A stretch of DNA of 20,000 bases from Folioceros fuciformis (taxonomy: Eukaryota): NCBI GenBank assembly GCA_049999805.1, contig JBNGIO010006148.1, positions 61,153-81,152 of the forward strand, written 5' to 3'. Shown here in pieces: positions 2-20,000 of the stretch (position 1 is its first letter; each line of letters begins with the position of its first letter). The notes below the pieces were generated by a model, which was given only the letters and a program-made list of their open reading frames with translations, was not told the origin of the DNA and ran no database searches. The position numbers and the translations under genes were made by a program.

Positions 2-1741
2 CGATTATCTAAGGTCAAGCCAAATGATTATGTGTATGTGGCTACTCTCAAAGCGTGTGCCAATGTAGGTGATTTGGCCTCCGGCAGAGCAATACACACT
101 GATGTCGTTGACAGTGGATACGACACGAACATATTTGTAGGGACTGCTCTTGTGGACATGTACACCAAATTGGGCATGGTAGAGGATGCTCGCAGAGTTT
201 TTGACATGTTGCCAAACAAGAATGTGGTCACATGGAGTACTATAATAGCAGGGTATGTGCATCATGGGCAAGGTCAAGAAGCTCTTAATCTCCATGAAAG
301 CATGCAACGGGACAAAGTGATACCAGATGTGGTGGCCTTTCTGTCTCTTCTGAAGGCGTGCACCTGTGTAGGAGCCATACAGAAGGGCAAGCAGATTCAT
401 GCGGAGATTCTGGATCAAAGGATGGAAAGTGACATCTCAATTGGGAGTACATTAGTGGACATGTATGCAAAATCTGGGAATCTGGATGATGCTCGATCAT
501 TCTTTGACCGGATGTCCTCCAGGAACATTGTGACATGGAGTGCTTTGATTTCAGGCTATGCCCATCATGAGCTTGGGAATGAAGCCCTCATTTTGTATGA
601 GAAAATGCGAAGCATAGGCATGACTCCGGACAGGGTGACCTATGTCTGCACTCTGAAGGCATGTGCTAGCGTAGGGGCCATACACAAAGGCAAGGGAATT
701 CATGCAGAGATCTTAGGGAGAGGACTGGAGGCTGATGTGTTTGTTGGAAATACCCTAGTGGACATGTATGGACGGAATGGATATCTGACAGATGCTCGCA
801 ACGTGTTTGATAGACTGCCCACTAAAGATGTGGTGACATGGAATGCTTTAATTAACAGCTACGGTCAACACAACAGCTGTGAAATGGCAACCCAATGTTT
901 TGAGACGATGCGGCGACATGGAGTTGAGCCCAATGGTGCCACTTTTGCATGTCTTCTCGTTGCCTGCAGTCATGCTTCTTTGGTGGATGAGGGTCAGAGA
1001 ATTTTCGATATGATGGAGGAGAATTATGGCATTTCTCCTACAGTCGAACATTATACCTGCATGGTGGATCTTCTTGGGCGGTCAGGACGCTTGGACGAGG
1101 CAGAAAGTCTATTGCAAACTATCCCACTTGAGAGTAGCAGTGTGGCTTGGATGTCTCTGCTCAGTGCCTGTAAAAGTCACGGAGATGTTGATCGAGGAAA
1201 GCGGTCTTTTGACAAATTTGTAGGACTGGAACCCAAGGATGCAGGGGCTTATGTACTTATGTCGAGTATCTATGCTAGTGCAGGGAGGTGGGACGATTTG
1301 AAGGAAATCGAAAGCGTCAGAAGGTGCACTGGTGCTTACAAGAAGGCTGCAAAGACATGGATCGAGGTTGACAATCAGGTGCACGAGTTTGTAGTCGGGG
1401 AAGACCGTGGCGATACAGCTTTGAGAATGAAGGGTTTACATGCGAGGCTGAAGGAGAGTGGGCATGTGCCCCAAACTGAGTTGGTGTTGAAGCCAATATC
1501 GGATCGGCAAAAGGAAGACGCCCTCTGTGGGCACGCTGAGAAGTTAGCTTTGGCGTATGGTCTTCTGAACACTCGAGAAGGCAAGACTTTGTTGGTGACA
1601 AAAAATCTCAGGATGTGCGACGATTGCCACAGTGGCACAAAAATACTTTCACGTGTAGAAAAGCGCGACATCATAGTTAGAGATTCATACCGAGTCCATC
1701 ATTTTAAGGACGGATTCTGTACGTGCAAAGATTCGTTGTAG
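2..1741 (+). CDS. PLS-class pentatricopeptide repeat protein with C-terminal E1-E2-DYW (DYW:KP-like) domain; organellar RNA editing factor; 5'-partial
   Basis: Frame is open from position 2 (RLSKVKPNDYVYVATLKAC...), so the gene starts upstream of the window. Motif order is L-S-P-L-S-P-L-S-P2-L2-S2-E1-E2 (e.g. VVTWNALINSYGQH, TFACLLVACSHASLVDEG, EHYTCMVDLLGRSGRLDEA, AWMSLLSACKSHG), followed by a deaminase domain with HAE and CDDCH. Stop TAG at 1739-1741. No introns seen. Confidence 0.97.
   Translation, partial: RLSKVKPNDYVYVATLKACANVGDLASGRAIHTDVVDSGYDTNIFVGTALVDMYTKLGMVEDARRVFDMLPNKNVVTWSTIIAGYVHHGQGQEALNLHESMQRDKVIPDVVAFLSLLKACTCVGAIQKGKQIHAEILDQRMESDISIGSTLVDMYAKSGNLDDARSFFDRMSSRNIVTWSALISGYAHHELGNEALILYEKMRSIGMTPDRVTYVCTLKACASVGAIHKGKGIHAEILGRGLEADVFVGNTLVDMYGRNGYLTDARNVFDRLPTKDVVTWNALINSYGQHNSCEMATQCFETMRRHGVEPNGATFACLLVACSHASLVDEGQRIFDMMEENYGISPTVEHYTCMVDLLGRSGRLDEAESLLQTIPLESSSVAWMSLLSACKSHGDVDRGKRSFDKFVGLEPKDAGAYVLMSSIYASAGRWDDLKEIESVRRCTGAYKKAAKTWIEVDNQVHEFVVGEDRGDTALRMKGLHARLKESGHVPQTELVLKPISDRQKEDALCGHAEKLALAYGLLNTREGKTLLVTKNLRMCDDCHSGTKILSRVEKRDIIVRDSYRVHHFKDGFCTCKDSL
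1343..1738 (+). other. DYW:KP-type zinc deaminase-fold domain (132 aa)
   Basis: KAAKTWIEV replaces the PG box. The SHP motif is missing after HEFVVGE. HAEKLALAYGLL (1532 onward) replaces HSEKLA. Also present: LLVTKNLRMCDDCH and HHFKDGFCTC. Terminal triplet is DSL instead of DYW. Confidence 0.85.
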
Positions 1742-2031
1742 GCAAAATTTCACACCCGCTGAACACATTTGATTCGGACGTGGGGAAGTCTCTGCCAGTT
1801 AGTTGTCGACGTAAGAACTCGAAAACAGGTACATGACGGTGAAGCCGGACAAAACATGTACCAATGTGGCAAAGGTTTAGCTATCTCTTCAGTCCAAATT
1901 GGACTACTGCCGAGAGACCTGACTACATCCACCTAGAGCAGAAGCCGAGCTGTTCTCAAATGCCCCTGCCAGAATTCAAACGAAACCTCCTGCAGTTGCT
2001 ATTTACAAAAACGACTTCAGACAAAGGAACT

Positions 2032-5000
2032 CTATGGCGTATAGTCAAAGGGCTCCGGTGGGGGAGGTTCACAGTCGTCTACGGCCATAGCAGTATCGGA
2101 GGAGGTGTCTGGAGGTGCTGGGGGCGCCCCTCCTGAGCTCGGCGCAGCAGCAGACACCGGCGAATCACTGGATACCAATTCAACAGGCTCTGATGGGTTC
2201 GTGTCTCTCAACATCACAAATCCTGAAGATGCCCTCTTCAAGGGCTGATACCGACAGGCCTCTGGAAATCTGATGTATTTCTCTTGTGCGGGGACAACCC
2301 TGGCTGGGTTGTTGAGCACTTCAATAGCGGAATCAACATCTGCACCTTTCTTCTCAACACCTGTGTCCACCTGCACATAAAGAGGACGCAATGCATTATT
2401 TGCCCGAGCTCTCCTCAATCTCCTCAGCACTGGCTGGATAGGAACCACAAACGCTACCTCCATTGCATCATCCTTCCCAGTTGTAGCGGCAGATTCCTCA
2501 GCAGATGCAGAAGAACTTTCCCCTGCCACTGCAGCTGCCGACGAGCCCTTAGCCTCAGGATGAGGAGATGAACTACCCTCCTGTGCCAATGCTTTGCTGG
2601 TTGCTGCCTTTGAATCGCTTTCTTTCTTTGCCCTCACTTTAGCCCTGGCTGATGTAGACAGCACTGCAGTTGGCAGCTTGATTGCTGAAGTAGTTGTCGG
2701 GGGTGCTGTAGATGGAGGATACCCAAACATAGCAGGGGGAGCCTCCGAGACGAACTTGAACTTTGGCATGCGAAGTTCCGAATTCAGGCCAATAAACGCC
2801 GTCGGCGCAAATGAGAGGCTGATGAAATATATCAGGGGGTACCAATACCAGAATTGTGTAAAGACCGCCATCCCGACTACAGCAGTTACTCGGTCGTGAC
2901 CCGTTCTTGACTGGAGCCGAATACCAACGTTCCGACCACCAGCATCAAGAATACCGTAGGCAAGAATGGCACCCATCTTGCTCATTGTATCCTCATGCTT
3001 ATCCAGAATAATCTTCTCCAGTTGACGCCTGAGACGAATCAAAGTCCAAAGCAGGAGGTACAATCAAATGCAAGTACTCGTGAAACAACATGAAAAAACT
3101 TTTTGCCAATCAAAAGGAATAAGGCAACAATGGATATGGAAATGGGCCGGCTCAGGATGTTTTACCCCCAACAGAAAAACTGAAAAGCACAGAGCGTCCA
3201 ATACCTGAAGTTGCCAACGCGAGGTTCACGCATCTCAGTTGCCTGCATGAGGACCATAGCCATTGCTATCAGAGCACCTTGTCTTACAAAATCCACCGCA
3301 TCTGAAGTCAGAGGCTCCAGAAGCGAGATTGCTTCACTACTGGCTGTACCAGCACATGATATACCCACAGCCATGGCCGCACCATACCTCACATGAGCAT
3401 TGTAGGACTCTGAGAGGAGTGAGACAATCCGTGGAGTCTGCACAGAACAACCAGTGCACCACTTGATGACACCAGCAGCTAGGGGACGAGCACTGCATGT
3501 AGTGATGCTTCTCAGAAAATCAACATACCTGCTCAGGTTCACCACAAAGAACGAACCCAAGTGCCAACACGGCAGTTCTCCTTACGTCATCACTGACATC
3601 AGAGACAGCAAAATGCAGAAGTCTCCGAATAGCACTGTTGTTTGCAGTACCCTTGTAAGCTAGAGCCAGAGCATACATGCCACCATAACGCAAAATTGGG
3701 TCTTGATCTCTGGTCAATTGCTCTATTAAAGTGTCAGCTTGCTCTTCACGTCCATAGACCACAAGGGCTATTCCCAAGGCCAGTCCCCTGAAAAACATAG
3801 ATTATACATTTCATAAGTAGCAGTGCACACAATGACAAACAATTTGTCGATCAGGCCCTCACAGGACCATGCAAAGGAGGCTTCTTTCGGACTAAAGCCC
3901 TTTAAACAACTAAACGCACCTGATAATCTTTTCATGCTGAGTGTCATGGGCATAAGCCAGCATTTCGCCTGCCTTCTCGGATGCTGTTCCTACCATAAGC
4001 AGACCCATGCTAATGCCAGCTGCCTCTCCAGCCACGGCACTATCTATGTACAGAACGCCCTTGACATGTTCATAAATATCCTCATCTGCAGTTCCTAGAG
4101 CTGCCAATCCCAAACCTAAACAAGCACCATGCTGAATAACCTGTAACACAGGTGAGTGACTGTTAAGTGGATCGTGTACAAACGTCCAGCGTCTGTGCAG
4201 AGCGGATTCCAGATGCCTACCTCATTGCTCGTGTTTTTCAAGCTTTCCAAAAGAAACTGCTTGATACCCTCCCCATGATTAGCATGAATAAGTCCAAGAG
4301 CATATAGTGCCCCACCTTCAGAGTACGGACTTCCTCCACCAGTGCCACCATTTTGTGGAAGATATGGAGCCATGAGTGATCTACCTTGCTGCAGGTGCCC
4401 TCGGTGTATTACACCGAGACCAGCAGTGGCACTGAACTTCGCCCAATTGGTGGCCCTACTTAACCAATCCTAAAGACATTTATCAGTGTCAATACTCACA
4501 AATGTGAACCACCCAGGTTTTTCCCAAACATCTGCAATATGCAGCTACAAGCAAAGCAAGGGCTAACCAGATTGTCACGAAGGAAAGTATCCACAGTCGT
4601 CCCAGCATGCATCAGAGCATTTGAATAAATTGTGGCGCTGTGACAAACACTGTTGCGCATCTCAACAGACTGCTTAATGGTTTTCAGGATGAGCAGATCC
4701 GATCTGCACGCATGAGAGAAGACAAATGTGTAAACAAACAGAATGCCACTTTCCAGAGACTGGAGACTAAGAATTCAGGAAATGCAACTCGAGAAGTTTA
4801 CCTGTTGTGACTATAAAGGAATTGAAGAGCAAGATTTATGGGTGTCTCTCCACTTAAGATAGCTTTGAGCTGTGCCAATCTCTCCCAATAGCCAGCAGGT
4901 TCCTGCTTTGGCTCTGACGCCTCACCAGTCCCCTCAGTTGCAACAGTTCCAGTGGGCAGTTCAGATTCTGATGTCTCCATAGCCACTGAGGATTCATGTT

Positions 5001-6568
5001 CAGACGTGCTAACAACGTTCTCTCCAGTCTGGGGAACTGGCACACTATCTGTGGCTGCTGCAGTGCTGACTGGTTTTGGATCTGGCAATGCATCTCTCAC
5101 ACTGACCAAGAAATGCTGGTACTCATTTTCAAACAGGTCAAAAGCAACTTGGAAGGCCATAAGAGCATCTACCTGCAAGCAAATGCTACTGGTCAGAAAT
5201 AAGGTCAAATAAGACAGTAGTCAAGAAATATTGAGTAGAAGGGTTCAACCTTATCTGATCTGAGAAGTCGATCAAGAATAGTGGCAACAACTCGAGGCTC
5301 ATCAAGAAACATGAGGCACTGACAAATACTCAAGTAGTCTGGCAGGTCAAGTTTCCGATAGATCTGAACCAAGAACCGTAGTACCTGTACCAAAAGTTCG
5401 TGATCTTAAGATAACAGAGCAGACAAATTGAGGAAAACTTGCAGCATACAATGTGAAATGGGGTTGAAAGTCTCCAGGTGTAACAAGGTTAAACAGAGAA
5501 CTACCTCTTCCTTAAACTTCCTTCCCATCACAAATGTCTGTGTCAGTCGAAGGCAATACGCTAGCATAGCATGTACATTGTCACTTCTCATGATAGCCTC
5601 CTCTAACTTATCCAGCCTCCTACACTCCAAGGCGATACCCATAGCCTGCTGGTATTTCCCATCTCCCAGACACCTGTGAGATAGAAGCACATATCCATTA
5701 TCGCGGCCACAAACATACTTGGCACAGCAGAACCTAAAGCATTGAGAACAAAGGCACAAGCTCTACAGTTAACCTACTTGTCAAGCATTTTCTCCACAAT
5801 CGCCACCAATTGTTTATCTGGCTCAGATGCAGATTCGCTGGACTCGGCAGCCTTAACATTGAGAGAGGCATATTCGTCGATGCACTTTGCTGTAAGCAGA
5901 AAGACAGTTCATAGCGCTCAATCGAAGAAACCAACATCTAGATCATGGACTCAAGGATGCATGGTTGCGGGACAGACTGAGACTCACCAACGAGAGTTTG
6001 CACGTACTCTGACTCTTCTTTAACGTCAAATAGAGGTCCAGCGGCAAGAGCATATGTCAGGGCATCATTAAGCTCCCCCAAATAGTAGAAAACCTGGCCA
6101 GGCAGGCATACCCAGAAACACGAATCAATTGCCAGGGCCCTAACAGTACTAACACGCGTGACAAAGGCGCAATTTAAATCCGACTACCGCACATGAAATC
6201 GGCTATCTCACCTTGGAGGCCAGCAAAGCTGCTAATTGGCTCTTGTCAAAGCGAGTATCTTCATGAAGGCTTTCACTGCATCAAATCGGATTATTCAACC
6301 TCTGACGCAAAATACGTAAACCCCCAAACCCTAGAACATAAACCTTGTCCAGCAGAGGGCTAGACTAGCAGGGCCGACGCGAGACGTACATTATTGTGAT
6401 GTGGGAAGAAATCTGAGGCCAAAATTGAGGCACCAGCTTGTCCAGGTATGTAAGCGCGTGCACCTTGAGCGCGGGGTGCTCCTCCTGCAGCATAGCCAAG
6501 AGCGGAGCCACACCTCCTACCCCGCCCATCCGCCATTGGGCAGGGTGAAGCGGAGGGGCAACAGCCAT
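2032..6568 (-). CDS. RPN2: 26S proteasome non-ATPase regulatory subunit 1 (RPN2/PSMD1), 14 exons, about 1047 aa
   Basis: Exons (minus): 6568-6390, 6275-6212, 6093-5988, 5889-5778, 5673-5505, 5384-5250, 5172-4802, 4703-4568, 4469-4221, 4140-3920, 3787-3529, 3437-3205, 3028-2458, 2370-2032. All introns are GT-AG and the frame is continuous (3144 nt). Diagnostic peptides: [78 protein letters not shown]-terminal [11 protein letters not shown] second in-frame ATG lies at 6529. Confidence 0.96.
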
Positions 6569-6852
6569 GGCAACAGTTTTTCCGGGAGCGGAGAAGCGAA
6601 GCTGGAGTCGTGCAGAACTGAAGCAGGCTCAGACCAGATTCCACCCCAACTCAAGCCGACTCCTACAAGAGGTCCGCTTAGAAACAAAACAAATTTACTC
6701 GTTCGCTGGAGTGGGCGTATGCTTCACTTTGTGAAACCCTAAAGTTATGTATTTCTACCTACACCTGCCCTGAAAGCGCAAGCCATTGGTGCAGCTACGA
6801 ACAATTTCCCCCCCAACTAGAAAGTTTCCCATTCCAGGCGAGCACGGCAGCG
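6569..6852. promoter_or_regulatory. Putative bidirectional promoter and 5' UTRs shared by RPN2 and ATP synthase subunit e
   Basis: Only 284 bp separate the two divergent ATGs. Telo-box AAACCCTAA at 6734-6742 and reverse CCAAT (ATTGG) at 6785-6789. A further AAACCCTAG sits at 6326-6334 in RPN2 intron 1. Confidence 0.6.
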
Positions 6853-7178
6853 ATGGCAGGCGCTGGAGGTATCTCAGGGCCCTACTCGGGCACAAGCACT
6901 CTGGCACTGGTAAGCTATGTCTTCGCCTTTCAATTTTACCACGCATTCCATCGATCGGCTCCTAAGGTCTGATGGGCGAGTACTTTTGGGTGCAGGTCGC
7001 TCGGGTGTCAGCTGTGACTGTCGGAGTTTTGTATGGACGAATGAAGCTGTCGTATCTCAAGGTGTGATCCTCGATTGCCACTTGTTTCTGTGCGTTCCGT
7101 GCTATGTTTGAGGAGCTGATTACGTGAATTTGGATTCTGCAGGCAACCACACCAGCTCCAAAAAAAGCTCACCATTGA
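6853..7178 (+). CDS. Mitochondrial ATP synthase subunit e (plant type, ATP21-like), 3 exons, 52 aa
   Basis: Exons 6853-6909, 6996-7061 and 7143-7178 are joined by phase-0 GT-AG introns. Product: MAGAGGISGPYSGTSTLAL-VARVSAVTVGVLYGRMKLSYLK-ATTPAPKKAHH*. YSGTSTLALVAR, G.LYG..KL..LK and terminal KAHH match plant F1Fo subunit e as I recall it. Confidence 0.9.
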
Positions 7179-7697
7179 CGCAGGGTAGGTCCATGAGAGC
7201 CTTCTTTCCGTACAGCGATCTGGCGGGGTGGACGCTGTGCGGCGGATGTATTGTTTCCTTGTTAGATGCATCCGGGTTGATCATGCGGAACACGCGTCTG
7301 TTCTGTGATGTGCGTCTTCAGGATGTGGTCAGCTATTGCTGGGACCTTGGCACGCGGGTTGCATGAGAACTTGACATTTGCATCTACTGTTGAGATTCAA
7401 CAAGTTCTTCTCCACTGCAGTGTTATGATCGCACTCCAACAGTTTTGCATTTGAGTAAAGATTCGACTGGAACTTCCCTTGTGAGCCAGAGATCTTCGCG
7501 TCTGCTGTTCAATGTGCTGTCAAATGCGAGGTTCGAAACGTGTTCCATGATAAAACACCGTCTCCGAGTCTCGATGTTCCGATGTGATGGTTGTTGTAGG
7601 AGTTCTTTCGTTCGTATACCCGACTTAGGAGCATATTAAATGGCAGACCGTGTTAGCTCCCGAACGTCGGGAGTTGGTAAATAGTATTTGGATTTTG

Positions 7698-7797: not shown

Positions 7798-10700
7798 CCT
7801 CATGATCGAGCTGAGCTCGCCCACGTTCTTCACATCTTCCTGCCCGACTTCCAGGCCTTCCTGCAGTCACCGGTGTTTATTCCGCCTTCCTGATTGTCGC
7901 TACTTCCAATTGATGGACGACGTTCGTCAGTTTTTGCAGCTGAGGAGGAATCTCTGAGCTTCTAGCGTTATGAATCAATTTTGTGAATGGAGTGTCTTTA
8001 GGGGCCCAAAGTGGAGGATAGGGCGCAAGTCATGTCCAAGGAGGTCAGGCTACCCAATGCTGGACCTACACCAGCTATACTGGACGATCAGGATGCACAA
8101 ATTGTGAGTCAAGTGTCCAAGGCCCAAGAACCCAATTTTCTAATGGGCACTAGCTGACGATCGTCTTGGTATGTTCTCGCTCTGAAAGGCTATCAAGCTC
8201 AGTAACGACTTTCACCTTAATGAACTGCACTGTGTGGGTCTCCTGGTACACGCTCATCAAGAGGTACTGGTTGTCACCTTGATATGTCGCTTTTAGTTTT
8301 CTGGAATTCTGGTCAAGGATGTGCATCATTGAATTGTGTTGTCGGCCTTCGCCAGTGCAATCTTCAACATAGGGAACCCCTGGAAGTTTTACGGCTCACA
8401 GCTGGTCTCCGCTTCGCTGAGAGGAGGGCTCTTATCACAACGTTGCTGCTGCTGCTTAGAGTGAGCTCCACGAAGCAAGCTTTTAGCTGAAAGATGTGTA
8501 TCTGGTCGGTCCACACCGATCGTTTGGATGATTGAGCCTCTCAAGACTGTTATTCTGATGGATTGCGTGGCTTCAGACCGTGGTGCTGGACGAAGAGCTG
8601 GATCCTGATGTGATTGCTGAAGTTCGAGAATATGTCGAAGGTCTCCTCTTGTCGGGGCTGCGAAATAGACTTGTGGAGTTGATCAAGGTATCGTTTCGCT
8701 GAGAATCTCTGAGATTTATGCAGTCGGTTTCTCTTGAGGGTATCTAACAAATCGTATTCCGCTCTGGTAGGAATTAAATCGAGAAGAGCCGGCCGGGTTG
8801 GGAGGCCCTGGAGTTGAGCCTTACGTGATTGATTCACGAGGGTCTCTTGTTTTGCGGTATGATATTGCACAGAGGGAAAGGTTAAACCTCAGTCAGTGCC
8901 TTGTCTACACCTGTCTGATCGTTCGTATAAGTATGGACTGGCACACTTCCTGTATTCACTTTCAGTTCTTCACATTGTTCCAAGCTGCGCGTTTGATATC
9001 GTGATGGGTATTGACGGACAAAAGCGCTGCTTTCTTTAGGTTCAGTAGAAGCAAAAGACTTGTACAATCTACTGAAGGACACGTCTACAGATCATAGCAT
9101 CTCTCAAGGCCCTGTAAAACTTCAGGTATCTTATTTGACTAGCTCCTTCCGATTTTCAGTTGTGTGGAATGGCTTTGGGTTCAATCCTGCAAGTGAGCCT
9201 CGAATAGGTTACTCCTGCTTGCCTACATTGTTTTGCGGACTAAGTGTGTCTAAACTATTTTCAGATTGTGTACACAATTATGTTCAGCCTGGTCATCTCG
9301 TTGTTGTCTGACGCCTTCGGGGGAGGTCAAGATATGGCAGCTGTCCTTGCTCCTGATGCATCTTTCCGTCGGAGCTTTCAAGAGCTGGTGACACTTACTG
9401 TGCCTAGGAAAAAAATAGTGTGCTGTGTAATTGTGTGAGCGAATGTAACCCAGTTTTCTCTGCAGGTCGTTGGAACTGGCCTTGATGCAATGACAGAGGG
9501 TTTCACTGGAGTCATCAGATTTGTGTGGGCTGTATTTCTGGTCCTTACTTCTGGGGTGGCTAGTCCTGCAGAGGATGAGGCAAATGCAGCAGTCTGCCTC
9601 AATCGTGCCTGCGAACATGATGTCTTTGACTTTTTGACCAACAGAGTAGTCAGAACTGCTGCCTTTCAGGTTGGTCTATTATATCTTACGTCTCTGCATC
9701 TTAGTGAGACTTGTTAGCGTTATCTCAAGAAAAACACTGAGCACTTCGGAAGAATGTTGACTGGCTCATATCTCATAACCGCCCTTGTCTCACCGTTCAC
9801 CAGAATGATGAGGAGGACCTTTTGTTCATATTTAGTGCCTATCTACACAAGCTTCTGACCAGCTTTCTGTCGCAACCCCTTGGACGGGACAAGGTGGGTC
9901 AGTTTCACTTGTTTTAAAAGTGTGTTCCTGTTTTGTTTCCATGCAGTTTTAGCGACCCTGTCCCCCACTGTTCATTCCTTGGATTCCAGTGTCTGAAGCA
10001 AGTTTCTGCAGGTCCGAGAGCTCAAGGAGCTAGCCATGATGTCCTCCGATGCTCTTGACAATGAATCAATTGTCCCAGTTGCAGAGGACAACGGTAGGGG
10101 CGAACAGCAGGCTGCAGCCCAAGGAAAGCCGTTTGTGTCACTGCTGGAACTCTTAGCTGAACTTTACCAGGTATGCATTTTGAGCGTGGACGTTCCAGGT
10201 GTTAACATATCAATGCCAGACGCAGTGCTGAAGATTGTGGTTCTCTGTTGCAGAGGGAAGCAGAGCTCATGGTTGACAATGAAGTCATTTGGAATTTTGT
10301 GCGATTTGCTGGTGAAGACCATAACAGCTATGTCACTTTGGTGGCTTTCTTGCATATGATGACTGCATTGGTATGCACCCTTTCTACACATTTGCATTCT
10401 GGGGACTCAAATTAAGTGCGTTACCATACATCCAACTAAAGCTGCCTGGTTATGCAGGCCTCAAGCGAAAATGGAGCAAAGAGGGTGTACCAGCTGATGC
10501 AAAACAAATCAATGAGGTCTTTGGGGTGGAACACGCTCTTCAATTCGCTGGTTGTGTATGAGCAGCAATTTAGGCAGAGGAAGCAGACCGCTGGGTCACT
10601 GCTTCCGTCATTTCCAGAAGGTGATGCTAGGGCATTGGAGGCTTACTTAGGAGTTCTACGTCAGGTATTTAATGGCAGCTCAGGTGTCTCCTGTACTTCT

Positions 10701-13700
10701 CGAGATCTTCTGTTCTTTGTGCTTCCATGTGATCTCTCTTGATTCCACTGCTGGGATTGCAGGTCATGGAGTCAGGAAATGAGGTGGAAAGAACGCAGTG
10801 GTTTGCTGACATTGAGCCTCTGTTCAAGTTATTACCTTGGGAAAATGTGCCCCCTCGCCTGAAGGTACTCCTGACTGGAAGCTTCAATCAGGCGACATTT
10901 TTTTTCCAATTTGAATGCCTTCACTCACTAGCTTGTCCTGCTCTCAGGGTGCTCTCCGCAGTGCCATTACAGCATTTGTACCTGTATCAACCGTTGTAAG
11001 AGACAAGGTGTGGAGGTATCTGGAGCAGTACGATCTTCCAGTTATTGCAGCACCAGCAGTTGCGGATGGAAATCTCACTCACATTCAGTCCAAGGTAAAG
11101 GAACGTACTTCCCTTCTATCAGGCCAGCCTTGCTTTGAGTCTGACCTTTAGAACGCACACTTTGAATGTGACTTGATTGTTCGTTTGCTGACACGTGTCC
11201 TTTTCATATGCTCCAGACTCATGACATGGCATTTGAACTGAATGAAGTAGAAGCTCGGTTAGAAGAATACCCATCCACATTGTCCTACCTGGAGCTGCTG
11301 AATGCTCTTATTGCTAGTGAGATTGATCAATCTGATAAAGGGCATAGGTATGTTGGTTCTGTTCTAGGTTTAATCTGTACCAGAGATTCAATGTTCTTCT
11401 AGAATCTTTGCTCTGGCGTTCTAGTCAACAGTTTTCTAGTGAAAGGACTCATTGTTTGCTGGGAAGATGCTGAGAGCGCGTTTTGTTCCAGGTACATTGG
11501 CATTTTTAGATTTGTTCGGGACCAAGTGTTTGCGCCATATGCTCAAAGGGCCTATGCTGATCCAGTAGAGAAATGGCAGCTTGTAGTTGCAGCACTTCGG
11601 CATTTTCAAACGTGAGGGTACTACTCTGGCCACTTTGAGTTGCTGGATGACTAGTTGACTGGTGCTACCATCTATGTTTTCGAAGTGCAACATGGATTCT
11701 TCATGCTGCTGTAGAGTGAGTTTCTGCATGCTCATTGCTTTTGGCTTGGATGATTCTGGGTGACTTGGCAGTATGCTGAGTATGTATAAGTTCTCAGAAG
11801 ATGATATCCGGAACAATTCAGACCAAGTGGTACAGTCAAGCAGTGGAACAGGCATGGGAAGTCAAGTTGCTGGAGCATCTCGTCTGCTGTTGCCGTCATT
11901 GGAGCTTATGAAGGTATACCCTGAATTTGCTGTAAGGGCTACTTTGCAACCAAGAGGATGGTGTTGAATGGTTTCTCAAAGTCAAATGCTGTGTTTGCAG
12001 GACTTCATGAGTGGCAAAGTTATTTTCAGAAATATAATTGGTATTTTAATGGTGAGGGTCAATGGGCTCTTTGAAGAACGTACCAGCCAACTATATGGCC
12101 CCTATTTGGAAGAAGCAGTGCAGCTTTGTCTTCAACTCATTCTTATTGCTTTATCAAAAGATACCCTCATTGCAGATTTTTGGCGTCCAGCTTATCAGGC
12201 AAGTGCCTATTGTCTTGAAAGTGTCCAAAAGGGATGTGCAACTGCCATTGAGCTGGAGGATTTGTGTGTTCAAATGTTGCGGATGTTTCTTGTGTGTAGA
12301 CTGTAGATGTAATTCTGTATCATGATACCGAACAAATTATAGCACTTTTGGAGTATGTCCGCTATGATCCCCACCCTATGATTCAGCAGTACTCGGTTCA
12401 GATTATGAACGTTTTAAGGTAAACAGATTTCAGCTCATTTGGTTTAGTATTGAACGTATAGATTGTGGCTCAGAGCTTTCCCATGGCATTTTGACTGGTC
12501 CTGCGGAGCATGTAGTCTTGTCTGTGATGCTGTTCACAGGCGAGAGCCAAATTTGGTTGGGCGAATCTCAAGCAGAATCCCATTGGTATTGCAGTGCACG
12601 TATCCCACAGCTAGTGCCGATTATCCTGGAAGCAGGAGCGGCATCCTGTATTGTGGAAGACTGTGCAGCGTGTCTGGAGGCACGCATTCGGGATCTGAAT
12701 GCTACTGAGAGCTCTGAGGATGACACTGGTTCCCTTATTCTTAGGGTGAGTCATATGTTCGCAGAAATATAGGTTATTTTATTTCTCGAATTGATACTAT
12801 TCGGCTGCATTTTAATGTCTACCGTATCGCTGTCTGCAGCTTTTAATTGAGAACTTAAATGGGTCTAACCTCAACATAACGCTTTTGCTGCTCGGATTTG
12901 ATCTCGACCAACCTGCTAGGAGTATGCTAGAGCCAAAGCGTCAGTACAGGTGCAGCAGGGTCTCATTTGATTTGGTTACTTACCCTTTGTGGGTTGACCG
13001 TGTACTCATTTCCAATTTCACAATGCAGCTGTTTACGCGTGGTGCTAGACATGCTGGATACCTTATCAAGGCCTGAAGTTAATTATACTCTCCATGAGCT
13101 TGGGTTTCAGGTTATCTTTACACCCTGTTCTTTTCTTTAAATTGATTTCAATCCTCAAAGTGGATGGCCTGGAGGCCTTGCTGTTTTTCTTTTTGAAGCT
13201 TGGTGGATTTTAATCAGTTGGTAGATTGTTTGGTTTTGCAGTTGATATATGACCTCTGCATGGACCCAGTGACAAGTGGAGCAACTGTGGACCTCTTACG
13301 CACAGAGAAATATGATTTCTTTTCTAAAGTAACTTACAATCTCGTCCTCCCTGATGAGTTCGTTTTCTTGGATTTCGGGTCCTGTGCTAATGATGTGCAC
13401 CTTGCAGCACCTGGATGGTTTTGCGTCTGCCTCCCTCCCTGACCGGAGTGATAACCAGCCATTTCGTGTGAGCAACCTGCAGCAGGTATTCTTCGCCTGG
13501 TAGTTTGACAGGCTTCCAGTTGGTTTGCAGCCTGGAAGACATCTGCTCTCATTTAACCTTTAACATTTTCTACAGAGAGCCTGGTTGCTTAAGCTTATTG
13601 CCCTGGAGCTTCATTTGGCTGATACTGATGTGGCTATACATCGTGAACGCTGCCGACGTTTATTAGCCCATGTGTTTTTGAGGGACGCGCCTGGATCTGA

Positions 13701-16700
13701 GAATGGCTTTCTCTCGTCCGTGGTGCCTCTGAGGCTCACATATTCATCCTCTGAAGTCATTTCGAAGATCAAGGTACGTCTGGATACCTGGGTTGTCGGT
13801 GCAGAGCCAGGAATAAGTGCTTCTCGTCTCCCATGTGGGTTCCTGCCAGGCTTCTGCCAAGAGGGTTTCTGGCCAGGAGGGTTCCTGTCAGGTTTCTGGC
13901 AACCAAAGCCTAGCCTCTTGTCCTTCCACGAGGCCTGACACGAGTTCGTGGCATGTTGCTCTAGCAACTTAAAGGGTCTCGTGGCCTGTCACCTGAAGGT
14001 CTTCATCTTTTGCAGGTCTTGGAGCTGCTCGACATTGTTATGTTCCAGCTGTCTGAGATAGATACAGAATTTCTGCCCGAATTGCAGGGTTTCAAAGATG
14101 ATCTCAAGGTATGACACGGCAGCAAGGTCCTTGTGGGACTTTTATTAAGTATCAAGATTCCTTTGACAGTGCTGGCCTGACTCGTGGCTTGATATAATTT
14201 GTGCAGGTGGATGAGTTGCTTACCAACACATCAACAGTGGACATGGGTGGCGTGTATCGCGTGTCTGACAGGGGGGACAGACTTATTGATATTACTGCAC
14301 TTAGAGATTGCTTGTGGCAGGTCGGTGTCGATTCTTTCTCTGCTCCCTAAGCTTGTAGCTTTATGTCTAATGCGTTTGTGGAACTGTCAGGAATACAAGA
14401 GGCTCGAATTGCATCACAATATTCTGGCTAATGGCCACCGGCAAGCAGAGTTGAGAGAGGCAGTGAAGCAATTCATTAGATGGGCCTGGAGGAGGAATAT
14501 CAATCTCGAAGAGCAGGCAGCGCAAGTGCATATGCTAGTTGGGTGGACCCAGCTAGTTGAGGTGAGTAACCCTGTTGCTGTGCTGGCGTTACGTGACCAA
14601 ATAGTGCCTTAGTTCCGGACTTCTTGACGTATGGAGAATTCATTTGCCGGCATTCCTGGCAGGTGGCCATTTCAAGAAGATTTGAGTTTCTGGGCAGTCG
14701 AGCACAGATTCTTTTTGAGTAAGATGTCGTGGCTTCAGCTCTTGCAGACAAGATGCAACTGCTCTCAAGACTGATTGGCTCGTTTCTTGTGCAGCATACT
14801 GGATGCAGCATTAAGTGCAAGCGTATCATCAGATTGCTCGCTACGGATGGCTTCGACCCTTTGCCAGGTGAATGCTGATTCGCAGATGCATGATATCCTG
14901 TACTTGCAGGGATTAGTTTTCGTTGGCCTTTAGCAGAATAATTCGACGGTCATTGGTCTGAACAGTGTTGTGAACTTGCAGTTGGTCCTGACAGCTATGG
15001 CAAAGCTGCAAGAGCTCAGCATCGTCTCCCCTGGAGAGGGTGAAAGTACAGACGATGTAACATATCTTGATCTTTTATCAACTGTCCGGCTTTCCAACAG
15101 TGCGTGCCACACTATACTGTCAAAATTAATTGCTACGATTCTACGCCCCGAATCATCTGAAAATTTGCGCAGACGGTAAGTTCCATGTAAAATATGTGGT
15201 ATCCAGTAGGGACTACTACCGTTCGTTTCCTCTCCTAACAGAATCTCTAACGTTCTCGTGTTCAGGCAGTATGCGACCCTGTTAAGGTACTTCCATTATT
15301 CACAAGGGATGGTAAAGCATGATCTCCCAGTGTCTGTGATGCAAACCCTCCTGATGAATGGGAGTGAAGGAGAGGAGGATGCCGAGATTGAAAAGGTAGG
15401 CAGCCAACGCGTAATGCAAGTCTTTCCATTGCTGGGAGCGAAGTGTTTCTGTTGCTTGAATACTTCATTGTTGGGAACACGTCTGTGAGAGTCATGGAAG
15501 TATTTTGGAATGTTCAGCTTGATCGGGAGCAAACAGAGCTAGCTCAGGGGAATTTCGCAATTCTCAAACAGGAAGCAACGGCACTTGTTGATGTGGTATG
15601 TAACTATGTGTGGTGCTTGTGCCTCGCTGCTTAAAATGATCGAATACATTGTCCTAACAGATGAGTTTTGTTCAAGATGGCTTGGTGTTGAGTGTGGTTT
15701 CTTACTACTGGGCTTAATTCGAATGGGCTCACAGGTAGCAAGGGATGCTATGCATGGTACTGAAGTGGGCAAGGCTATTGCTTTTTATGTCCTCGATGCG
15801 TTAATAGCAGCAGATCGTCAACAAGTTTTTCTGAGCCAATTCCAGAGTCGTGGCTTGCTACAATCATGTCTTGCGGATGTTAGCTCCAACTCTTACCAGG
15901 TGCGATAGGGCTATCTTTTTTTTGTCTTGACATGTAGATGTGTGTGTGTTTGCGGTTTTTTAGCTCAGCGTGTTGCAATTGTCAAGCACGTCGCTGGCGC
16001 CAAGGCCAGGTTGTCGCTAAGGTGTCCGGGGTGATCTAACATGAGAATGCATGGGACACACTATGTGTTGACGACAGGCAATTCTTATACCATCCCCCGA
16101 TTCAGTGCGACGCCTGTACACGGTGGAAGCAGAGCTGGGTCTGCTTCTGCGAGTTAGCTACAACTCCAAAAAACGTGGAACACAAGCACTCTTCGCCATG
16201 GGTGCATTGAGGAGCCTGTCTGCCTGCCGAGCGATAGATATCCAGTTGACGGTACGAGAGAAACCCCTGAGTTTGTTAGAATGCCGTGTAAATCGCCTCA
16301 AGCATGCGGTAATGGCGCGCAAGTTATGATTTTTCAGGAAGGCAAGCGGGAGCACAGTGTGAAAATTGGCATTGGGCTTCCGTCACAGCACGACAGGCAA
16401 CATCAGATTGTGGCCCCGGTTCTTCGTCTTGTGCTATGCTTCACTTCTCTTGTTGACACCTCCGCCACTCTCGAGAAAGTAAGCGTTCAGTTTTGCTAAT
16501 CCGTGTATGTCTATTCGATCGCACTTTTTCACAAGATACTGGGGGACCTGGCGGAAGAGTGCACCAGTTAGAGAGACGTGTCTGCCCTTGGCATTCACGC
16601 ACCCTGTGTCGCTGTATCTTTCTAGGGACAAGACGAGGTGGTGCTGGAGATCGTGGAATTCTGTAAGATACATCAAGGATTGCTCGAGCGAATCCTTAGA

Positions 16701-18382
16701 CATGATATTCAAGGGGTGGAACTCGCTGATGTGGAGGAAGTTCATCTGGTTACAGCCATACTGGCGAAGGTGCGTCCTTAGGTGTTTTTTTCCTTGTTTT
16801 TTTTTTCCAATATGTATGAATTTCATCCATTCCTTGCTGGTCCTCTCCACTCCTGACCGTCGATTTTGTTTTGATGCAGGTCTGGCCACTTGCGGAGTCT
16901 TCAGATTTTGGGTTTACCCAGGGTCTCTTCAACCTCGCGTACGTTTACTTCTCTCCCGATTCAGAAACACGGAGCGAAGTCGTCAAGCACATCCGATTTA
17001 ATGAAAGGAACCCAGACCTTACAGCAGCTGACCGAGAGGTAGACATGAGTCGAGGCGATCGTAAGTTTTGCTTTCACGTTGTTGCATCTCCTGAATGGGT
17101 TGTGTGATTTGGCAGGGTGTACGGAAGATGGAGCTGTTGGTAGCTAGGATTAGGTGCAACCTGATAACTTTCCTGTACTCTATGGTGGCCAAGCATGGGC
17201 TCCGGTTGCACATTAGCAGGCCAGACGTAATTCCCGTTCTTCATCATCCGGTACATGTGGTGAACTTTTGGTCATGAACAGCGTAGATGATTGATGTATT
17301 TCCTTTGTTCCTTGGTGGTCGGCCAACAGGTTCCTGAACAGAAGATGAGTGCGACTCAATACAACCTGGGAAGGCAGAGGCAACCCACGCTGAAGCTGGT
17401 GAGCGAACTGCTGTACCAGTCCAGCCTGGACTTGGAGTCTGCTCTGGAGGATAAGACATTACTTCTGGCCAAGGTGAGGGATCCGCGTTGTGTGTTATTT
17501 TGTGTGTAAAGGTTAAAAGGTTTGAGTTTAGATCTCCTTTCTTGGGTGTGCAACACCCCTACATCTACATCCCTGATGTGTGCAGCTGGAAGATGTAAAT
17601 GAGCTGTCGAGGCACGAAGTAGACCTCATCATCAAGGCCTACGGCAGACAGGAGGAGGCAGACGCAGGAGACACCCTCCGCAAGAGGTAAGCGACAGCGT
17701 GCTGGCCAGGTCCTGCACTGTGGTGACGTCGTGAAACTGAACTGAGGCACGTCGTGTTCCGGCTGCACAGGAGGTTCTTGGCCATGATTGAGATGTGCAG
17801 TGCTGCTGGGGCGAAGGACAGTTTGGTCACGTCCCTGTTATACATGGTGGAACACAGCCTAGAGATTTTGTACATCCACTTGGAGACGAGGTTAGCAAGT
17901 GATTCTCCCTCCTTCCTTCCTCCTCCTTCCTTCCTCCTCCTTCTTCCTTCCTATCCAGGGCCCTCCCGCAAGCTGCACCGTCCTGACGCGGTCGTCTCCA
18001 ACCACTCTCCGCAGGCTGGCGCGCGTAAAAGCGGACGTAAGCTTCAAACCCATTGACGACACGGAGAAAGCGTTGGGCAGCAAGGAGGAGGTGAGCGTCC
18101 TGATGGACCGCCTGCTCCCCATATTCGACTCGCTGGGCGCCATGACTGAGGTACCGGCCCTCTCCACACCACACCACCCGACAACATGTGTCCCTAACGG
18201 AACTCACTTTCCGTTTCCTTCGTACTAGCTAGCTATGTCACTAATACGGCGCCCCTGGGCGTGGCGGGTGTGGCGGGCGGTAACAGGATCGAGTGGGTCG
18301 CAGCACGCAGCACTTGCAGCGACTGGTCCGCTCTCTCAGACCTCGGATCCTCTCCCAGCTGGTTCTAGAAGGAGGCGCGTAG
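7798..18382 (+). CDS. NUP205: Nuclear pore complex protein NUP205, at least 45 exons, about 1890 aa visible; 5'-partial because of the gap
   Basis: Exons: 7798-7872, 8002-8103, 8189-8263, 8356-8460, 8577-8687, 8771-8930, 9040-9125, 9265-9387, 9466-9669, 9804-9893, 10012-10170, 10254-10370, 10458-10664, 10763-10864, 10948-11094, 11217-11347, 11492-11611, 11772-11913, 12001-12198, 12300-12418, 12595-12745, 12840-12949, 13029-13110, 13242-13328, 13408-13485, 13576-13773, 14016-14108, 14207-14320, 14391-14561, 14663-14718, 14795-14867, 14982-15175, 15266-15395, 15518-15595, 15735-15899, 16078-16251, 16338-16478, 16626-16769, 16880-17038, 17116-17226 (or 17250), 17330-17473, 17586-17686, 17771-17890, 18015-18150, 18287-18382 (TAG). 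Frame is continuous. Peptides ELNREEPAGLGGP, DSRGSLV, FKLLPWENVPPRLKGALR, ELNEVEARLEEYPST, IIALLEYVRYD and NLEEQAAQVHMLVGWTQLVEV match plant NUP205 as recalled. Confidence 0.93.
12199..12299 (+). other. Non-canonical GC-AG intron in NUP205
   Basis: CAG|GCAAGT donor and TGTAG| acceptor. This junction gives FWRPAYQ|TVDVILYHD...IIALLEYVRYD, colinear with the homologues as I recall them. Confidence 0.8.
17903..17952 (+). repeat. Pure pyrimidine (CCT/CCTT) low-complexity tract in a NUP205 intron
   Basis: ttctccctccttccttcctcctccttccttcctcctccttcttccttcct. Confidence 0.85.
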
Positions 18383-18804
18383 CTAGCTGGTACAGTAGCC
18401 GGGATGCAATGTAGAGTGGGTGTTCCACACCCAAGGTAGCCGGGCAGCCCTGCTCCAGAGTGTTGCAAGGTGTGGGCTGCGGGTTGGCCCCGACCTTGTT
18501 CTTTATGTGGCAAAAGCTGATCCGTCAAGTTGGGGCGCGGACTCGTCGTAACCTGCCGTGTGTGGCAGTGTGCACTGGAGCAAGGTTGCCAATGAGCGTC
18601 ATGCACACGTAGGGCCGGCAACAGGGCTCAAATCTGGGGCGCGAGGCGGGGCCCTCCTCCGGGCCAGACGGTCGCATGTGGTACGACTGCGTTGCGCCAC
18701 CTGCGCCTTCCCTCCGCCGATTTTATGAGACCCGAGGTTGAGCTTGCCCTGCTCCCCCCCTGGTTGCTCAACCTTGCTGGGCCTGGATCGCGGTAAGGCT
18801 GTCG

Positions 18805-19129: not shown

Positions 19130-19589
19130 TTATAGTGCAACCTTTTTGCTGTCCTGTCCTATGTGTGGGACTAGGTATGTCCTTTTGACAACAACTGGTA
19201 TCATGGTGGGCCTAAGCCCTAAGCTTTTTTGTTGCAACGCGGGCACACCGTCCACTGCATCCCAGTAGGTAGCCAGCCCAGCCAGGCGGCCAGCCAGCCC
19301 ATGAAAGCTCTGGCTGGATACATACTTAACTACCAGCGCTGATATTTTATCCCGCATCCACCATATCCAGTTTGGCCTAGTTGCGAGGAGGACATGGAGA
19401 TGGAGAAGGAGAAGGAGAAGGAGAGGGAGCAGAAGCGATGAAGATTGGATTGAGTGACGGTGGATTGGGGAATGTGGCCATGGCACTAACGTACATACGT
19501 ACCGATGTAAACACATACCTGGCTTTTGCATTGCATGAAGAGCAAGAGATGGCATTCGAATGATTGCTGATGTGAGCACGGCTGGACAT
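19130..19589 (-). other. Possible small spliced transcript (hypothetical 105-aa orphan ORF or lncRNA)
   Basis: TATA-like (TA)5 at 19775-19784; ATG at 19589; donor CCAG|GTATGT at 19519/19518; pyrimidine tract and CTAG| acceptor at 19377/19376; in-frame join to TAA at 19132-19130. No recognisable homology. Confidence 0.25.
19396..19428. repeat. (GGAGAA)n hexamer microsatellite
   Basis: ggagatggagaaggagaaggagaaggagaggga. Confidence 0.8.
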
Positions 19590-19714
19590 GGAATCCAGGG
19601 GGGCGCCCTGGCTCTGGGGCTGGGCCGAGGGGCGGCGATACTGCACTGCTCTCCGTCCCTAGGATTCGGGGCCCAGCCGCCCAGGCCCATGCCCACGCCC
19701 AGGCCCTGGCCCGG

Positions 19715-19765
19715 CGAGACGACACGAGACGAGACGAGACCAAATGAAACGAAGCGGAACGAAAC
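19715..19765. repeat. Degenerate (CGAGA/CGAAA)n pentamer repeat
   Basis: cgagacgacacgagacgagacgagaccaaatgaaacgaagcggaacgaaac. Confidence 0.8.
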
Positions 19766-19852
19766 TTCACAATGTATATATATAGCGAGAGTTGGGATGG
19801 GTGAGTTGCCATAAATATCGTCCACTGTGTGTAATAGCAATTGGAAGTGGCA

Positions 19853-19924
19853 GGGGAAAGGGAAGGAAGGGGCAGGCCAAGGGCGAGGGAAGGGAAGGGC
19901 AGGGCAGGGAAGGAGAGGGGAGGG
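19853..19924 (+). repeat. G-run-rich pentamer repeat (AGGGA/AGGGC), G-quadruplex-type motif
   Basis: GGGCGAGGGAAGGGAAGGGCAGGGCAGGG at 19881-19909, with further G runs on both sides. Confidence 0.75.
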
Positions 19925-20000
19925 CCACAGAGAAGGGGCTGGGTAGAGAGTTTTCCTCTCGCTCTGCTTTTTTCGTCTTTTCCGCGGTGTCTGTCAGAGG

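Follow-up and report, generated by a model that had tools for sequence, protein, structure and literature searches.

Known DYW:KP proteins and the locus

DYW deaminase domains fall into a PG and a KP class, which are distinguished by the residue pair at the N-terminus (P-G or K-P), by the middle residue of the HxE motif (Ser in PG, Ala or Cys in KP), and by the end of the domain, which reads DYW in the PG class and is variable in the KP class (PMC11845758). KP domains are 132 or 133 residues long and contain a conserved lysine, Lys88 (PMC11845758). The DYW:KP class is confined to hornworts, lycophytes, and ferns (PMC13386178). DRH and GRP are two hornwort variants, and the KP proteins of tracheophytes cluster apart (PMC9478123). 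Designer proteins with KP domains, namely the GRP-based KP2 and KP3 and the fern-based KP6, convert uridine to cytidine (U to C; PMC9478123, PMC11845758), and this activity is lost when HAE is changed to HAA, when CxxC is changed to AxxA, or when Lys88 is replaced (PMC11845758). Here we describe a natural gene assigned to this class, which lies at positions 2–1741 of the plus strand in a 20,000-nucleotide stretch of DNA from Folioceros fuciformis (GenBank assembly GCA_049999805.1, contig JBNGIO010006148.1, positions 61,153–81,152; hereafter the window). It comprises the 3' portion of an apparently transcribed nuclear gene that encodes a pentatricopeptide repeat (PPR) protein of the PLS class and is cut by the window start.

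Like the natural hornwort DYW:KP proteins of the DRH and GRP types (PMC9478123, citing Gerke et al., 2020 and Gutmann et al., 2020), the predicted protein is organized in the order PLS-E1-E2-DYW. It also shares with them the HAE motif, the sequence NLRMC, a stretch of 27–28 residues where PG domains have 31, an end other than DYW, and an E2 motif of the KP type. Unlike them, it forms the first branch of their common clade, belongs to neither group, opens with K-A-A in place of K-P-A, and has DSL as its final triplet. The designer proteins KP2, KP3, and KP6 belong to the same class, and the residues needed for their activity (His and Glu of HAE, CxxC, and Lys88) are all present here. The designers, however, are consensus domains mounted on a synthetic PLS array, whereas this domain is part of a natural gene with its own array, and KP6 belongs to a tracheophyte subclade with a longer gating region, unlike the domain under study.

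Assignment to the DYW:KP class

The deaminase domain occupies positions 1343..1738 of the plus strand (132 residues). Analyzed alone, these residues match Pfam DYW_deaminase (PF14432) far above chance (E 2.3e-35). A sequence-only reading of this DNA had placed the domain in the DYW:KP class, and profile scoring and phylogeny now bear out that placement. In a word-indexed protein search with 87 matches, the 34 best (52–71% identity) carry HAE, or HVE in one case, and none of them ends in YW; the DYW-ending matches are 36–50% identical. Cluster representatives, searched exhaustively, yielded 2,491 matches at E <= 0.001, 150 of which were listed, and 257 distinct complete DYW domains were extracted from 349 proteins. 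Trees were calculated from 124 core columns; the N-terminal motif and the three final residues were left out of them to serve as independent labels. FastTree placed the domain inside a clade of 74 tips with a Shimodaira–Hasegawa-like support of 0.989. IQ-TREE was run on 106 of the 257 rows, comprising the 74 tips of this clade and 32 rows drawn at random from the 105 that have the P-G pair, HSE, and a YW end, with the other 151 omitted. It recovered the 74-tip clade including the domain with a support of 100/99 (ultrafast bootstrap/Shimodaira–Hasegawa-like approximate likelihood ratio test), and none of the 32 PG rows fell inside. Around the domain, nested clades of 47, 37, and 27 tips obtained supports of 99/80, 98/86, and 97/86, respectively. 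The K-P pair occurs in 51 of the 74 tips and a YW or FW end in a single one; no such end is found among the 37 tips of the hornwort-type clade, outside of which the named fern sequences P0041, P0177, and P0148 are located, in line with the separate clustering of tracheophyte KP proteins (PMC9478123). In the 27-tip clade, 13 sequences end in DRH, four in GRP, two in DRP, and eight in other triplets. The domain is 62–71% identical to the DRH- and GRP-ending members of this clade, of which it is the first branch, beside rows ending in VDH and DSP.

Profile hidden Markov models (HMMs) built on the core columns point in the same direction. They were trained on 40 KP-labelled and 114 PG-labelled rows, leaving 102 rows unlabelled; the labels were assigned in this study by the end motif and the N-terminal pair, both outside the core columns, and not by the published HMMs. 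The domain scored 192.6 bits against the KP profile and 149.2 bits against the PG profile. This difference of +43.4 bits is close to the median of the KP training rows (+42.1), whereas the values of the PG rows lie between -30.3 and -63.7. At eight positions that discriminate the hornwort-type clade from PG sequences, the domain shows the KP state at seven, the PG state at none, and another residue at one. Its HAE motif with Ala after the zinc-binding His, its end other than DYW, its length of 132 residues, and the conserved lysine are those of a KP domain, and where canonical PG domains have P-G, HSE, and DYW it reads A-A, HAE, and DSL. A search of a protein atlas returned generic Streptophyta DYW clusters only.

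Several observations speak against a straightforward KP assignment. The name-giving Lys-Pro pair is incomplete, as the lysine is retained and the proline is replaced by Ala, and this loss together with the DSL end is atypical for the class. The end is neither DRH nor GRP, and the domain falls neither in the GRP group nor in the main DRH group. In addition, an approximately unbiased (AU) test did not reject a tree in which the domain is joined with the 32 PG rows (difference in log-likelihood 29.9, p-AU 0.208). In this constrained tree the joining branch is of zero length, with the PG group as a whole drawn to a place beside the domain within the hornwort-type KP group. The outcome of the test thus reflects a poorly fixed attachment point of the PG group in the 124 columns and not a PG affinity of the domain, but it also means that the bootstrap values are no proof of the exact topology, despite the 100/99 split between KP and PG. 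With respect to the missing proline, a KAA start is found in three of the other 73 rows of the clade (P0205, P0008, and P0209). Since the K-P pair is only a consensus trait, present in the 51 tips mentioned above, the domain was classified by its clade and its profile score, and counted as atypical. On the evidence of tree, profiles, discriminating residues, and the E2 motif, we assign it to the DYW:KP class and, within this class, to the hornwort-type subclade.

Active sites and predicted structure

The metal ligands were mapped by alignment to the solved DYW domain of OTP86 (7o4e) and the ligand list of PMC7611903. The H-A-E motif (1532..1540) provides the zinc ligand His64 and the catalytic Glu66, equivalent to H892 and E894 of OTP86, with Ala between them as in KP domains. 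The C-D-D-C-H motif (1616..1630, the CDDC part at 1616–1627) contributes Cys92 and Cys95 (C920 and C923) to the catalytic zinc site and His96 (H924) to the second one, whose other ligands are His119, Cys126, and Cys128 (H947, C954, and C956; 1697..1726). Lys87 (1601..1603) corresponds to K915 of OTP86 and to Lys88 of the 133-residue KP domains, and its column is invariant among 36 sequences. The seven zinc ligands are thus all intact, as are Glu66 and Lys87, and D130 (D958) and K100 (K928) are retained as well. The HxE...CxxC core and a second zinc site made of H, H, and CxC are the hallmarks of the DYW deaminase fold, and the sequence-only reading was right in listing the zinc and catalytic residues, including those of the second site, as kept. 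The DNA and its translation likewise confirm its domain borders (1343–1738) and the motifs HAE, CDDC, GHVPQT (1460–1477), HAEKLALAYG, and NLRMC, as well as the end other than DYW, which reads D-S-L followed by the stop codon TAG (1730..1741).

Two further claims of that reading were correct in part. It had noted the lack of a PG box. The P-G pair is indeed absent; the box itself, however, is present in its KP form (K-A-A-K-T-W-I-E-V), with K-A-A (1343..1351) where the name-giving K-P-A is expected and thus Ala in place of Pro. It had also described the deletion of an SHP segment as a KP signature. A gap of four residues does exist relative to 9kfx and 7o4e, located after residue 23 between nucleotides 1411 and 1412, but it marks the hornwort-like subclade and not all KP domains: the stretch with the gap measures 27–28 residues in this subclade and 31 in most other rows of the KP clade and in PG domains. 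Judged from the alignment offset, positions 1382..1531 probably match the gating insertion of OTP86 (H837-G891; PMC7611903). This region, which includes the GHVPQT motif, is four residues shorter than in PG domains.

An AlphaFold2 model of the domain, calculated from a 36-row alignment, reached a mean predicted local distance difference test score of 90.7. In Foldseek comparisons the model matched the DYW domain of 9kfx_A with a template modeling (TM) score of 0.93 and a root-mean-square deviation of 1.4 Å, and the probability was 1.00 for 9kfx, 7w86, and 7o4e/f. The predicted fold is thus that of the canonical PG structures 9kfx, DYW1 (7w86), and OTP86 (7o4e/7o4f), with TM scores of 0.93, 0.76, and 0.80, respectively. 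The domain has in common with them both zinc sites, the catalytic Glu, and the active-site Lys, at an identity of 34–45% in the structural alignments. In contrast to the PG structures, it lacks the P-G pair, has HAE for HSE and Met for Val before the first Cys, carries the shorter gating region, and follows an E2 motif with E24 and R27 where PG proteins have R24 and M27. Furthermore, a Leu replaces the terminal Trp of OTP86, which stacks on a zinc-binding His (PMC7611903). From residues conserved in 85% or more of the hornwort-type clade the domain departs at only five places (T5, A26, S115, Y116, and T127), all of which are conservative and none of which is catalytic.

Co-variation of the E2 motif

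The E2 motif preceding the domain (1241..1342, 34 residues) is of the KP type by comparison of rows, with E24, R27, S9, and a lysine as its last residue. Glu occupies position 24 in 25 of the 36 rows of hornwort type and in 23 of the 36 further rows of the KP clade, whereas 97 of 112 PG rows have Arg. At position 27, Arg is found in 32 of 36 rows of either KP set, and 89 of the 112 PG rows carry Met. Of these PG rows, 99 have Asn at position 9, which varies among KP rows. In the structure of a PG complex, the residues that contact RNA near the edited nucleotide include N(9,E2) and R(24,E2) (PMC13324415). As far as these rows tell, the class of the E2 motif (E24/R27 versus R24/M27) switches together with the KP or PG type of the DYW domain that follows.

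Gene architecture, transcription, and orthologues

The gene consists, within the window, of one frame of 579 codons and the stop codon TAG (1739–1741), which is open at the first base of the window (2..1741) and needs no intron. Pfam recognizes PPR (E 1.5e-58), E_motif (3.5e-11), and DYW_deaminase (3.9e-34) in the whole frame. By our own parse, with textbook values for the motif lengths, the PPR array in the window (26..1138) reads L1-S1-P1-L1-S1-P1-L1-S1-P2-L2-S2 with lengths of 35/31/35/35/31/35/35/31/35/36/32 residues, and is followed by E1 (1139..1240, 34 residues; also detected as Pfam E_motif), E2 (34), and DYW (132). At position 5 and the last position, the P and S motifs carry the residue pairs TN, SD, SN, SD, ND, NN, and TS. 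The P1-L1-S1 triplets followed by P2-L2-S2-E1-E2 identify a member of the PLS class, whose array is incomplete at the window start; the architecture is ...(P1-L1-S1)n-P2-L2-S2-E1-E2-DYW. In the protein collection no orthologue was found among the best 120 of 5,263 matches, the top full-length identity being 54%.

Contigs from sequencing run X1 match the window at 1–845 and 817–2368 with zero differences, and one of them extends the gene 786 nucleotides upstream of the window start. The second contig runs into a convergent neighboring gene, in which it displays at least ten CT..AC joints, corresponding to GT..AG introns on the minus strand. DNA run X2, the likely source run, which carries the same species label as X1, has none of these joints. 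The X1 contigs were therefore taken as RNA-derived. Runs X7 and X4, which carry two other species labels, contain an orthologue of about 93% identity beside the same spliced neighbor, with 115 differences over positions 1–1726 in X7 and 110 over 1–1574 in X4. Run X4 is listed as 'DNA?', yet its contig skips the same introns of the neighbor as those of X1 and X7 (window 1877–6275) and is RNA-like in this respect. The first 40 listed differences of X7 (nucleotides 37–694) change 17 codons synonymously and 20 non-synonymously. With 155 synonymous and 538 non-synonymous sites, the ratio of non-synonymous to synonymous substitution rates (dN/dS) is roughly 0.3.

The natural KP gene is thus apparently expressed and constrained, although several points detract from this view. 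None of the runs with matching contigs is recorded as RNA; the RNA nature of the X1, X7, and X4 contigs is read from the intron-skipping joints, and the intronless PPR gene taken alone is not separable from DNA carry-over. The dN/dS value covers nucleotides 37–694 and hence the PPR part, not the DYW domain. Finally, the X7 match ends at nucleotide 1726, which is the second Cys of CxC, and the last four codons are unmatched there.

Predicted function and alternative explanations

We consider the product most likely to be a site-specific organellar RNA editing factor of the KP type with U-to-C chemistry, with a rough probability of 0.6; by analogy, the U-to-C direction would follow from what is known of the family. 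The sequence-only reading had likewise proposed a native U-to-C editing enzyme. The PPR array would bind RNA 5' of the target and read the upstream bases. Under the established PPR code, the motifs in the window would presumably select A G n A G n U Y n r at positions -13 to -4 relative to the edited nucleotide. S2 would be positioned over nucleotide -4 (PMC13324415). The E1-E2-DYW part would then place the nucleotide four positions downstream of S2 into the site formed by zinc, Glu66, and Lys87, where Lys87 could attack C4 of the uridine and yield C, as proposed for the designer KP enzymes. The sequence-only reading had called the amination mechanism unresolved, a statement that is partly outdated: papers from 2024–2025 implicate the active-site Lys88 as nitrogen donor via an RNA-protein crosslink (PMC11845758), and this lysine is present here.

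The proposed function has to be weighed against several facts. Organelle targeting, target site, and editing direction are inferred, and the N-terminal part of the gene, which would supply the transit peptide and complete the target prediction, lies outside the window. The activity of natural KP proteins is described as unknown in PMC11845758, and in the literature consulted no natural KP protein is characterized; U to C is the one pyrimidine transition for which this literature describes no natural enzyme, the activity data coming from consensus designs. Three of seven designer KP proteins are active, and the DRH-based KP1 is not among them (PMC9478123, PMC11845758). Moreover, KP6 also edits C to U (PMC9478123, PMC11845758), and PG domains share the critical lysine (PMC11845758), so that the sequence leaves the direction of editing unfixed.

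These last two facts give some weight to an explanation that we regard as unlikely and yet as a serious contender, namely that the protein is an active editor whose native reaction is C to U, or proceeds in both directions, instead of U to C alone. In human cells KP6 catalyzes either conversion, and its direction can be switched by single or triple substitutions (PMC9478123, PMC11845758). By our own mapping, the domain has the C-to-U-promoting residue at two of three such KP6 positions (G and V; positions 64, 113, and 133) and the U-to-C-promoting residue at two of five (E and V; positions 6, 17, 47, 116, and 119). However, the KP6 substitutions went toward the KP consensus and depend on context, and they do not predict the direction for another domain. 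Furthermore, the hornwort-derived KP2 and KP3 displayed no C-to-U activity (PMC9478123, PMC11845758), and the class markers are all in the KP state here.

Somewhat less probable still is a silent or decaying paralogue, a PPR protein that would bind RNA but whose KP domain has lost its editing activity. The family is very large, with 1,583–2,308 PPR genes in each hornwort genome (PMC13386178). The loss of the KP proline, the unusual DSL end, the unmatched last four codons in a relative that is otherwise 93% identical, and the absence of the DRH-based designer from the active designs (PMC9478123) would all fit such a scenario. It is contradicted by the open frame of 579 codons, by the retention of the zinc ligands, Glu66, and Lys87, and by the small number and conservative nature of the departures from the residues conserved in the subclade. 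The dN/dS of roughly 0.3 over the listed part, the occurrence of the gene in RNA-derived assemblies of three species, and the KAA start of three other clade members argue in the same direction.

More doubtful again is the idea that the domain represents a natural third subtype outside DRH and GRP, with a chemistry unlike that of the designers, for example dual-directional, or completing U-to-C conversion without a lasting protein-RNA crosslink. It would be consistent with the small basal grade that holds the domain, whose members start with K-A/V-A and have varied ends (DSL, VDH, and DSP). If this were true, the E2 exchanges R24 to E and M27 to R might be part of the substrate handling of KP proteins. 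The weakest explanation, a divergent-looking but otherwise canonical DYW:PG cytidine deaminase domain, could draw on the AU test, which did not reject it, and on Trp at position 6 as in PG-type sequences, but is close to refuted by the lack of any PG row in the well-supported clade of the domain, the advantage of 43.4 bits for the KP profile where all 114 PG-labelled rows score 30–64 bits the opposite way, the lack of any PG state at the eight discriminating positions, the missing P-G pair, HSE, and YW end, and the zero-length joining branch of the constrained tree.

Neighboring genes

The convergent neighbor on the minus strand (2032–6671) encodes the 26S proteasome subunit RPN2. Pfam RPN2_N matches its exon 4804–5169, and HEAT_2 and PC_rep match the exon 3529–3786; at least ten introns are removed in the RNA-derived contigs. 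The longest open reading frame (ORF) over its last exon ends at 2032, about 290 nucleotides from the PPR stop codon. One X1 contig spans both genes, and their 3' ends therefore probably overlap or abut. A small gene follows on the plus strand at about 6680–7500, with GT..AG joints at 6908/6995, 7059/7141, and 7183/7321. The depth of its X1 contig (1004) is far above that of the neighbors, and its ORF pieces 6682–6969 and 7112–7363 have no Pfam match. A long multi-exon gene extends from about 8000 to 18800, in which the X7 joints include 8460/8580, 8932/9047, 12200/12306, 13328/13414, and 14718/14796, among many. The sole hint to its identity is a match of 10440–10739 (plus strand) to Nup192 (nucleoporin 186/192/205), which at E 0.0046 and 14.7 bits stays below the cut-off of 28.7 bits. 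An open frame of 287 codons on the minus strand (19130–19993) has no Pfam match. At about 19680–19750 the related species' contigs break off into low-complexity runs of short period that are rich in C and G. Of 20 neighboring ORF pieces, 16 had no Pfam match, one remained below the cut-off, two pieces of RPN2 exons were matched, and a third RPN2 piece was set aside for its stop codons.

Significance

The gene is a natural and slightly atypical member of the already known DYW:KP class, of hornwort type. The KP subgroup has been surveyed across 22 hornwort genomes (PMC13386178), and given the huge size of the hornwort PPR families one additional member leaves the overall picture unchanged. Being natural, intact, and apparently expressed, and having an orthologue in two relatives, this KP gene would nevertheless be a usable test object. 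Within the family, this member shows that neither the proline from which the class takes its name nor the terminal triplet is required for membership in the KP clade.

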